From NCBI RefSeq assembly GCF_003334785.1, contig NZ_QOWV01000006.1: 64,000 bases of DNA. One strand, 5' to 3'. Positions 61,995-63,599 of the stretch are shown here, one piece after another. The DNA comes from Escherichia coli (GTDB taxonomy: Bacteria > Pseudomonadota > Gammaproteobacteria > Enterobacterales > Enterobacteriaceae). The notes beneath the pieces are model-generated. The model saw only the letters and a list, made by a program, of their open reading frames with translations. It did not search any database and was not told the DNA's origin. Position 1 is the first letter of the stretch, and each line of letters opens with the position of its first letter. The translations under genes and the position numbers were made by a program.

Positions 61995-63599
61995 TTAAGA
62001 ATCAGCCTGACTCGGGATCAGTTTTTGCCAGATAACTGAAACGTATTTTGCCTGGTAACGGGCGTCATCAAGTGCATTATGGCGCTCACCTTCGAATGGA
62101 ATAGCCGTTCTGGCATCGAAGTCTATGGCTTTCCCCAGCTCAACGATTGTGCGTACATCGCGATCGTTGTAGTAACGCCACGGGCAGGGGATCCCCTGCC
62201 GTTCGTATGAACGGCGCAAAATCGTGTTGTCGAAGTTGGCTCCATTTCCCCAAACCTGAACAAAAAATTCACCGGAGTTTTCGTCGATAAATTCTCGCAA
62301 TTGTAACAGTGCATCATCTAACGGGATTTCATCGGTCATAATGGCAGATTGCGCTTCGCGTGATTGCTTAAGCCACCATTTAATGGTGTCCCGATCAATG
62401 ACTCCGCCAGCAGTTTCCAGATCGATAGTCTTACTAAATTCCGGTCCCATATCTCCGGTTTGCGGATCGAAAAATATTGCACCTATTGAGATGATCGGGG
62501 CATCAGGATTTTTTCCCATGGTTTCAAGGTCGATCATTAGATGGTCACACGTCCTGCTGGTGGATGTGATTTCGTGATGACCGTTCACCTTAATTGGGTG
62601 ATCTGCCGTCTCGCCAGTTTCATTATCGCTATTGTGATGCTGATTGCCGCCAGTGTTCTCCTTGTGTGGATGTTCAGCGCCTTCCATTTCCTCCGGATCA
62701 TCTTCCTGAACTTCAACCTGATACTCTTCATCGAATGTTTCTTGGTATGTTGCGTCGCCCATCACCGCGCCACAATCAGGGCAGTTGCCGCCGCCGGTCT
62801 GACCGCAGGCGGTGCAGACTTTTTCCACTTCCTGTTGCGCTACTGGTTCAGGCTGTTTCGTTTCTGGCTCGTTTTGTAACGCATTTGGACTGTTTTGTTC
62901 CGCTTTTTGGTAGTTCCGTTCCGATTCATGCTGGTTCTGGTTCACAGAATCGCGGGTCTGGAGCCCCTTAACCCATTTCGGATCATTCGGGTCACTAATC
63001 CCTTCAACAAATTCACCACGTGATGCAGCAAGCAACTTATCGGCGTCAGGCTGGCTGATATTGGCTGCCTGCATAATTTTGTTTACTTCGTCAGCGGTAA
63101 CTTTTATCGGCTCTGGTTGTTCTGAATCTTCAGCGGTATCTACATTTTGCGGTAAGCCCGTGTATGTGCCATTTTTTCGGGCAAAATATTCTTCTTTTGT
63201 GATTTCAGTGGCGCCAGCAGCCAGTGCCTTATCCAGACCAGAGAGTTTGTTTGCGCGACCGTATTTTTCTCCGTCCTTATCTGCGAAGAGGAAATAGAAC
63301 GGCCCCTCACGCTCTACAGATGGTTCAGCTTCCGGCGCGGTTTCATTTTTTGGGATATCAGATACCTCAGTTTCCACTGCATCAGTTTGTGTTTCTGATG
63401 ACTGGAGAACATCAACAGTGCCCAGGTCTGTTTCTTCATTCTCAAACACGCCCTTTGTCGTCAGGTATTCGCAGATATATTTGTTCAGTGCTACGGGATC
63501 TTTGTGAATGTCGATCGGACGCTCACGGACAAGGCCAAAAATAGTTTGGCGGTCGTAGCGAAGGGCATCAGGCTGTTTGCGCATTGATGCCGAGATACG
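61995..63599 (-). CDS. Prophage protein with C-terminal DEDDh (DnaQ/Rv2179c-like) 3'-5' exonuclease domain; 5' end interrupted by or abutting an IS element (possible pseudogene)
   Basis: C-terminal motifs MIDLETMGK..., VWGNGANFD..., [10 protein letters not shown] typical of DEDDh exonucleases; N-terminal region acidic with [16 protein letters not shown]; the ORF start at 63626 lies inside IS sequence. Confidence 0.65.
   Translation of the reverse strand, partial: [534 protein letters not shown]

Follow-up and report, generated by a model that had tools for sequence, protein, structure and literature searches.

A 3′ remnant of a Qin-type prophage exonuclease gene, truncated by IS600 in Escherichia coli

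What is the long, acidic reading frame that stands beside the integrase and excisionase genes of an Escherichia coli prophage, and can it still be active where a transposable element has removed its beginning? We addressed this question in a stretch of 64,000 nucleotides (nt) from contig NZ_QOWV01000006.1 (assembly GCF_003334785.1), hereafter called the window, in which a minus-strand open reading frame (ORF) runs into the insertion sequence (IS) IS600. A first-pass annotation, made from the DNA alone, had described this frame as a prophage DEDDh exonuclease with an unusual acidic, zinc-finger-containing N-terminal region. Our analysis indicates that it is very probably what remains, in inactive form, of the 3′ part of a Qin-type prophage exonuclease gene, the intact product of which would trim the 3′ ends of DNA by means of a nuclease carried on a RecE-type scaffold. 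The locus retains the last two-thirds of a prophage gene that is among the commonest in E. coli, inactivated here by an IS and already annotated in RefSeq as an exonuclease pseudogene.

Results

The truncated gene and its junction with IS600

The fragment agrees at 1607 of 1607 nt with the 3′ portion of a gene that is intact, with 825 codons, in E. coli ATCC 8739 (WP_000048362.1); codons 1–291, which are absent from the window, have therefore been lost and nothing else has been altered. Since alignment of the junction to an uninterrupted copy ends the native sequence at position 63600, with the IS beginning at 63601, the native part consists of 534 codons starting from R292. It extends over 61998–63599 on the minus strand, where base 63599 is the first base of R292, the first complete native codon, and is closed by a TAA stop at 61995–61997. 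The limits proposed in the first-pass annotation (61995–63599) were accurate to the codon, and the uninterrupted gene of ATCC 8739 bears out its two statements that an IS replaces the 5′ end and that the native N-terminus is missing.

From 63450 to 64000, the sequence had 100% identity with elements that bear the annotation 'IS3-like element IS600 family transposase'; the terminal inverted repeat begins with TG, as expected for IS600 (TGAGGTAGCC). Only the left end of the element lies in the window, and the second CGC copy lies past position 64000. In strain AST198, which has an identical junction, IS600 measures 1264 bp and is bordered by CGC at both ends, as left by a simple insertion that duplicates 3 bp of its target. 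The same IS600 junction was found in 37 complete E. coli genomes. In many E. coli genomes that are otherwise identical, IS30 splits the IS600 found at this site, at the equivalent of window position 63927; this arrangement was observed in ML35 and in the best 12-kb matches. The IS600 copy of the window is unsplit up to 64000.

In ATCC 8739, the genes follow the order dicA, ydfA, ydfB, ydfC, dicB, ydfD, exonuclease, xis, int, rspB, and the element is the Qin-type lambdoid prophage; the fragment of the window likewise belongs to a Qin-type defective lambdoid prophage integrated beside rspB. The intact gene stands last in the early-left operon of the prophage, within the order dicB, ydfD, exonuclease, xis, int; the boundaries of the domains that it encodes, described below, are predicted. 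A location right after int and xis, as the first-pass annotation had it, is supported by the ORFs and by the annotations of matching loci. A full-length protein with 99.6% identity (XSB42569.1) is encoded by PhiR42_1, deposited as a complete phage genome, in the order ydfD, exonuclease, xis, int. In the PHROGs database, the fragment belongs to phrog_2082 ('exonuclease', 823 positions) and aligns to positions 290–822. WP_000048362.1, XSB42569.1 and PHROG 2082 represent the same gene as the fragment, at the same rspB–int–xis site and with the same downstream genes.

When the 1700 nt up to the junction were used as a query, similar DNA was found in 4743 of 5426 complete E. coli genomes (~87%), and many of these matches were 100% identical. 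In other strains, RefSeq annotates the same fragment as incomplete, with its N-terminus missing. In K-12, the intQ pseudogene occupies the same site, and the pseudogene ydfE (b1577) of MG1655 is an N-terminal fragment of the same gene, cut by IS2. Whereas the window copy has lost codons 1–291 to IS600, K-12 lacks the complementary C-terminal part. In the relative P0028, a deletion joins a DUF1391 (YdfA-like) N-terminus, without loss of frame, to the region around residue 280 of the exonuclease. The gene has thus been broken repeatedly in cryptic prophages, as seen from the alleles with IS2 (K-12), an IS3-family element (MDK6L1), IS600 and the P0028 deletion.

Expression of the truncated copy

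The first-pass annotation left room for a promoter kept by the fragment or supplied by the IS. A consensus scan gave neither a native nor an IS-borne promoter-like site reading into the fragment: no sigma-70-like site with this orientation was found on the minus strand, and the only promoter-like site was IS600's own, on the plus strand at 63616–63644. A promoter in IS600 reading into the fragment was rejected on this basis.

Two of the 37 strains with the identical junction, AST198 and ML35, were examined beyond the IS. According to their RefSeq annotation, all that both retain of the gene past IS600 is a short piece, truncated at either end, which abuts a truncated DUF977 gene; a base-by-base comparison in AST198 showed that about 220 nt of the gene continue past IS600 before the match breaks. 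In both strains the fragment is marked as a pseudogene, and the early region from dicA to ydfD, including dicB, is absent, so that the natural promoter is gone. From these relatives, we infer that the operon promoter has also been lost in the genome of the window. With this probable loss of the promoter of its operon, the window copy is most likely silent.

The ORF itself continues for nine codons into the IS600 inverted repeat, to a GTG start at 63624–63626 (minus strand) that has AGGAAGGA upstream, both within 63624–63646. This start is probably fortuitous.

The DEDDh exonuclease domain

The C-terminal part of the fragment matched the Pfam family PF16473 (Rv2179c-like) over model positions 2–177 of 177, with an E-value of 2.4e-67, and RNase_T with an E-value of 7e-4. 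All five DEDDh catalytic residues (D-x-E, D, H-x4-D) are kept, in agreement with the family assigned in the first-pass annotation. Residues 352–530 of the fragment were modelled by AlphaFold2 with a predicted local distance difference test (pLDDT) score of ~96, and a Foldseek search of the PDB with this model ranked T4 DexA first (8KEN/8KEL, E 3e-11), followed by RNase T, oligoribonuclease (Orn), REXO2 and Cap18, each of the five with a probability of 1.00. The domain is accordingly predicted to have an RNase H-like DEDD fold, and structure prediction confirmed the exonuclease fold that had been proposed. T4 DexA is the best sequence match as well (E 1.6e-6). Like the region that precedes it, the domain is acidic, with an isoelectric point (pI) of 4.5. 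As an exonuclease fold was found and 291 codons are truly missing, the first-pass description of an exonuclease gene deprived of its beginning holds.

The RecE-like middle region and the predicted architecture

The first 350 residues of the fragment have a pI of 4.5, a content of 20% in aspartate plus glutamate and a net charge of -36. The NCBIfam model NF007259 (exodeoxyribonuclease VIII) aligned, over its positions 271–600, to residues 248–625 of the intact protein (E 1.3e-83), and BLASTP against K-12 RecE yielded 39% identity over 366 columns (E 2e-61). RecE residues 455–592 are near-identical to this protein, up to EMEGAEHPH just before the RecE nuclease domain. In the same comparison, the first ~250 residues of the intact protein had no similarity to RecE, and BLASTP against the nuclease domain of RecE (601–866) gave no similarity. 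The intact protein scored 281.6 bits against NF007259, far below the curated cut-off of 1269 bits, and it has neither a PD-(D/E)XK domain nor an adjacent recT gene. A Pfam search of the acidic middle region returned no significant family, and a sequence search of the PDB returned only a chance match to ovomucoid (E 1.8).

Within this region, a CxxC-x7-CxxC motif was located at fragment residues 262–276 (CTAC...CPDC, with CxxC pairs at 262 and 273), and RecE 518–533 holds the same motif as CNACGQTGGDNCPDCG. The columns of the four cysteines were covered by 10–13 of 113 representatives, in which they were nearly always Cys, the exceptions being a single other residue in each of the last two columns; the motif thus appears to be an optional insert in the family. 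This stretch matched the Pfam family DZR weakly (E 0.33) and was modelled with pLDDT values of 46–68. Of the zinc finger proposed in the first-pass annotation, the motif itself is present, but the finger fold is of low confidence, and the term would describe a sequence motif only. Similarly, the acidic region with four cysteines exists as reported, but it is neither unusual nor an orphan, being homologous to the middle part of RecE, and similar DNA occurs in ~87% of complete E. coli genomes. Because the odd acidic four-Cys segment is the segment found in RecE, we regard the locus as ordinary.

The AlphaFold2 model of the fragment, based on an alignment of 113 sequences, was helical at residues 1–55 (pLDDT 89–97), disordered at 61–88, helical with moderate confidence at 169–212, and disordered again at 240–258 and 277–346. 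Between these segments lies a small predicted module (fragment residues 96–145), which is conserved in relatives with different C-terminal domains and absent from K-12 RecE; it had neither a Pfam nor a PDB sequence match. In the model of intact residues 1–450, an alpha/beta domain (1–95) is followed by a helical domain (105–205), a second helical domain (~245–345, with helices at 249–340 and pLDDT ~92) and the small module (390–435). The IS600 cut, after residue 291, would bisect the second predicted helical domain. Foldseek found nothing resembling residues 1–450 in the PDB (best E 0.74), and its matches in AFDB50 were confined to the enterobacterial family of the protein itself, under the names 'exonuclease' or 'exodeoxyribonuclease VIII'. 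Comparison of partial proteins placed the Pfam families PF27430 and PF27432 in the missing residues 1–290; they fall outside the window, since they are assigned to partial proteins that hold the residues before ~218.

The intact protein is an 825-residue mosaic with predicted domain boundaries. Residues 1–345 would form three folded N-terminal domains, and residues 346–640 an acidic, mostly disordered tether including a beta/alpha module, a short helical segment and the four-Cys motif. Residues 644–815 are the DexA/Rv2179c-type DEDDh domain, at the place where RecE has its PD-(D/E)XK nuclease. The features of the locus are listed in Table 1.

Table 1. Coordinates and supporting evidence for the features of the truncated exonuclease locus, in window positions.
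Feature	Position	Strand	Evidence or remark
Whole minus-strand ORF	61995..63626	-	543 aa, program-made ORF list
3′ remnant of the Qin-type prophage 'exonuclease' gene (pseudogene fragment, codons 292–825 and TAA)	61995..63599	-	Identity to intact gene
Chimeric 5′ extension into the IS600 inverted repeat, 9 IS-derived codons (MSVKLRLPQ)	63600..63626	-	ORF list, sequence
Target-site triplet CGC	63598..63600	.	Window bases and AST198 comparison
IS600 left end (IS3 family), starting with the inverted repeat and exiting the window	63601..64000	+	100% identity to annotated copies
IS600 orfA	63665-63967	+	ORF list
RecE-homologous middle region (intact residues 292–625), mostly predicted disordered, small folded islands	62598..63599	-	NCBIfam, BLASTP, AlphaFold2
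C-terminal half of predicted helical domain (intact ~245–345)	63435..63599	-	AlphaFold2
Small conserved module (fragment 96–145), predicted folded, two beta-hairpins and helices	63165..63314	-	AlphaFold2, pLDDT 95–97
Four-Cys motif CxxC-x7-CxxC, putative zinc ribbon	62772..62816	-	C553, C556, C564 and C567 of the intact protein
DEDDh (DnaQ-like, DexA/Rv2179c-type) 3′-5′ exonuclease domain, fragment residues 353–524	62028..62543	-	Pfam PF16473
Catalytic D357 (MIDLET)	62529-62531	-	DEDDh motif I
Catalytic E359 (MIDLET)	62523-62525	-	DEDDh motif I
Catalytic D457 (NFDN)	62229-62231	-	DEDDh motif II
Catalytic H507 (HNALDD)	62079-62081	-	DEDDh motif III
Catalytic D512 (HNALDD)	62064-62066	-	DEDDh motif III
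Excisionase gene (xis), directly downstream of the remnant	61671..61922	-	ORF; WP_000005552.1 'excisionase family protein' in identical loci
Tyrosine integrase gene (int) of the Qin-type prophage	60356..61651	-	ORF, annotations of matching loci
Chromosomal rspB, adjoining int	59125-60168	+	ORF, annotations

A family of shuffled proteins

A search among 1.84 billion cluster representatives yielded 11,735 matches (E <=1e-3), and the best 150 of these 11,735 were mostly stand-alone DEDDh proteins of ~180–250 aa. The long relatives were mapped domain by domain with local BLAST. One of them, P0124 (805 aa), combines the N-terminus and middle region of RecE with the four-Cys motif and a DEDDh domain; its first 270 residues are 100% identical to K-12 RecE and its DEDDh domain is 99% identical to that of the fragment. 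It is a clean swap of domains from RecE to DEDDh. The reciprocal combination, Qin-type N-terminal modules with the RecE nuclease, was observed in P0141 and P0161. Moreover, five proteins of ~730–790 aa (P0138, P0153, P0155, P0180 and P0236) join Qin-type N-terminal modules to a third C-terminal domain of ~250 aa, with the motif KKSLTDA.KKALS.LGFSADVWLGLYD. This domain matched the Pfam family Rad52_Rad22 weakly (E 0.078); it had no sequence match in the PDB, and NCBIfam returned nothing for the tail. It may be an annealase domain, or these may be the 'RecE-2' proteins that Zheng et al. mention and that have no nuclease domain (PMC12315714).

The RecE-type region is paired with at least three unrelated C-terminal domains in enterobacterial prophages, namely PD-(D/E)XK, DEDDh and the third domain. 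We tentatively put forward, as an idea that is more doubtful than not, that the RecE-type N-terminal and middle region is a portable scaffold, more than an appendage that RecE could do without. This idea is independent of the inactivated copy in the window. If true, it would imply that the region has one job in all these proteins, for instance to tether DNA-end-processing or annealing activities either to DNA ends or to a partner, of the host or of the phage, that they have in common; the DEDDh protein might then be a long relative of the DexA/EcD nucleases reported recently.

Comparison with known nucleases

The gene occupies the same position in the lambdoid early-left operon as recE (b1350) of the Rac prophage, which encodes exonuclease VIII. 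The two proteins have in common the middle region (RecE 271–600) with its CxxC-x7-CxxC motif, and an acidic tail that reaches to where the nuclease begins. Their catalytic ends are unrelated and of opposite polarity: PD-(D/E)XK, 5′-3′ in RecE (601–866), versus DEDDh, 3′-5′ in this protein. In Rac, recE is followed by recT, whereas no annealase gene stands beside the intact Qin-type exonuclease, between ydfD and xis.

T4 DexA and its E. coli homologue EcD ('HREX') belong to the same DEDDh subfamily and have the same catalytic residues, but they stand alone, with 189–227 aa, whereas the domain described here forms the C-terminal end of a protein of 825 aa. T4 DexA is a 3′-5′ DNA exonuclease, the structure of which was solved in a 2025 study, and EcD is reported there to protect against T4 by degrading DNA that contains 5-hydroxymethylcytosine (5hmC), even at leaky expression (PMC12153337); the loss of the Asp equivalent to DexA D90, linked with a dimer-only state, was taken as a mark of the HREX/EcD type. 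An EcD-type protein of 189 aa (in L018) was 37% identical to the domain described here (E 2e-36). In pairwise alignments, which are the sole basis for these two positions, a Tyr aligns with DexA W152 and with the EcD Trp implicated in 5hmC recognition, and the Asp equivalent to DexA D90 is kept (PLDD), whereas Ala78 stands there in the EcD-type protein. The enzyme family is thus the same, yet we did not file the domain as an HREX member, because these two highlighted residues differ.

We also considered whether EcD might be a trimmed piece of the long gene, and rejected this, as the full reverse-primer site of PMC12153337 gave no match. The forward-primer site led to DEDDh ORFs of 189 aa that stand alone, encode Ala78 and nearly match at the 3′ end, so that EcD is a stand-alone relative and not this gene. 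These EcD-matching ORFs sit on viral (IMG/VR) contigs (L018, L019, L023, L025, L026 and L031). Prophages are not mentioned in the portion of PMC12153337 that was searched. The 'bacterial' DexA homologues of that study may largely be phage or prophage genes.

The DnaQ-like 3′-5′ nucleases of lambdoid phages belong to the same domain family and, as Zheng et al. report (Genome Res 2025, PMC12315714), occur in recombination modules; a fusion to a RecE-type region is not described in the text of that paper as consulted. Among these nucleases, gp34 of phage epsilon34 is 56% identical over the domain, but it is a 182-aa stand-alone protein encoded between SSB and Abc2, whereas the protein studied here is a long fusion. 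PADLOC returned a weak match to a generic, CRISPR-associated DEDDh model (E 1.8e-5); membership in a defence system was rejected, as this match was only weak and generic.

Discussion

The insertion of IS600 at codon 292 falls within a predicted helical domain and cuts the fragment off from codons 1–291. After prophage induction, the intact protein would remove nucleotides from free 3′ ends of DNA, and its RecE-type N-terminal region would probably provide, on a linker that is flexible and acidic, a scaffold for oligomerisation or targeting. Several points weigh against this reading, both for the window copy and for the intact protein. The far side of IS600 lies outside the window, and promoter loss is deduced from relatives. 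The fragment contains no internal stop or frameshift and its DEDDh domain is complete; moreover, the in-frame GTG with AGGAAGGA upstream in the IS600 repeat makes low-level expression possible. The perfect identity to intact copies is uninformative on selection either way. As regards the intact protein, a DNA rather than an RNA substrate is suggested by analogy with DexA and EcD; the Pfam family owes its name to an exoribonuclease. No function has been shown anywhere for the N-terminal or RecE-type region (PMC11611040), and fold searches of the N-terminal region return only the protein's own family. Our search of the literature on ydfE, the Qin exonuclease and Rv2179c in phages gave no functional study of the long protein.

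Could the truncated gene nevertheless be functional? Translation from the GTG at 63626, or from the internal ATG of codon 297 (63582–63584), might yield an active DEDDh enzyme of benefit to the host, for instance against phages with modified DNA in the manner of EcD/HREX. The open frame with its complete catalytic domain and AGGAAGGA just upstream of the GTG are compatible with this, as are the persistence of the same junction in 37 complete genomes and the protection against T4 reported for the stand-alone homologue EcD even at leaky expression (PMC12153337). However, no promoter-like site is found on the minus strand, the AGGA is just 4 nt from the GTG, and the fragment starts midway through a predicted folded domain. 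The persistence also fits clonal inheritance of a recent event, as there is no divergence from intact copies, and a Tyr replaces the DexA/EcD Trp of 5hmC recognition while the Asp that EcD lacks is kept. We consider a working remnant highly improbable. A second question concerns the substrate, since an activity on RNA, trimming or degrading transcripts at prophage induction, would agree with the naming of the Pfam family after an exoribonuclease of M. tuberculosis, with the RefSeq label '3'-5' exoribonuclease domain-containing protein' and with the fold neighbours RNase T, oligoribonuclease and REXO2. We consider this improbable, as the best match in both sequence and structure is the DNA exonuclease T4 DexA, the homologue EcD degrades DNA (PMC12153337), and the domain is fused to a RecE-type region and sits in a DNA-transaction region of the phage; sequence alone cannot decide, because DEDDh enzymes often accept both substrates.

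The third reading concerns the purpose of the intact protein: it would not process DNA ends in the manner of a recombination nuclease but be a conflict weapon that degrades host DNA, the DNA of competing phages or a nucleic-acid part of a host defence system, and the RecE-type region would serve for delivery only. Its nearest characterised relatives are T4 DexA, which scavenges host DNA, and EcD, which acts against T4 (PMC12153337), and no annealase or SSB gene adjoins the exonuclease in Qin-type phages. Zheng et al. (PMC12315714) leave int-proximal DnaQ-type nucleases out of the genes of recombination modules and remark that 3′-5′ exonucleases usually inhibit homologous recombination; the weak PADLOC match to a CRISPR-associated DEDDh model points in the same direction. 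Yet the whole middle region is common to RecE, a bona fide recombination nuclease, and in phage epsilon34 the recombination module has stand-alone homologues between SSB and Abc2. We regard this reading as unlikely, though clearly less so than a functional remnant or an RNA substrate, and favour the inactive remnant of a gene for a RecE-type, 3′-end-trimming nuclease.

The locus is of interest solely for the way in which the RecE-type region is reused as a module. When present, the N-terminal two-thirds of RecE improves linear–linear recombineering (Fu et al. 2012, as cited in PMC11611040). That the N-terminal part of RecE belongs to a family of shuffled modules joined to nucleases of opposite polarity offers a comparative handle on its role. 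Furthermore, many 'DexA homologues' of E. coli are likely to be long prophage fusion proteins and not stand-alone host defence genes.

Lastly, a perfect inverted repeat of 9–10 bp (CGCCGGTTG ... CAACCGGCG) was observed at 61951–61983, between the exonuclease stop and the xis start. As RNA, it folds with -19.7 kcal/mol (z-score -1.8). It is not a typical intrinsic terminator, since no T-run follows, and it may serve in the processing or attenuation of the exonuclease–xis–int transcript.

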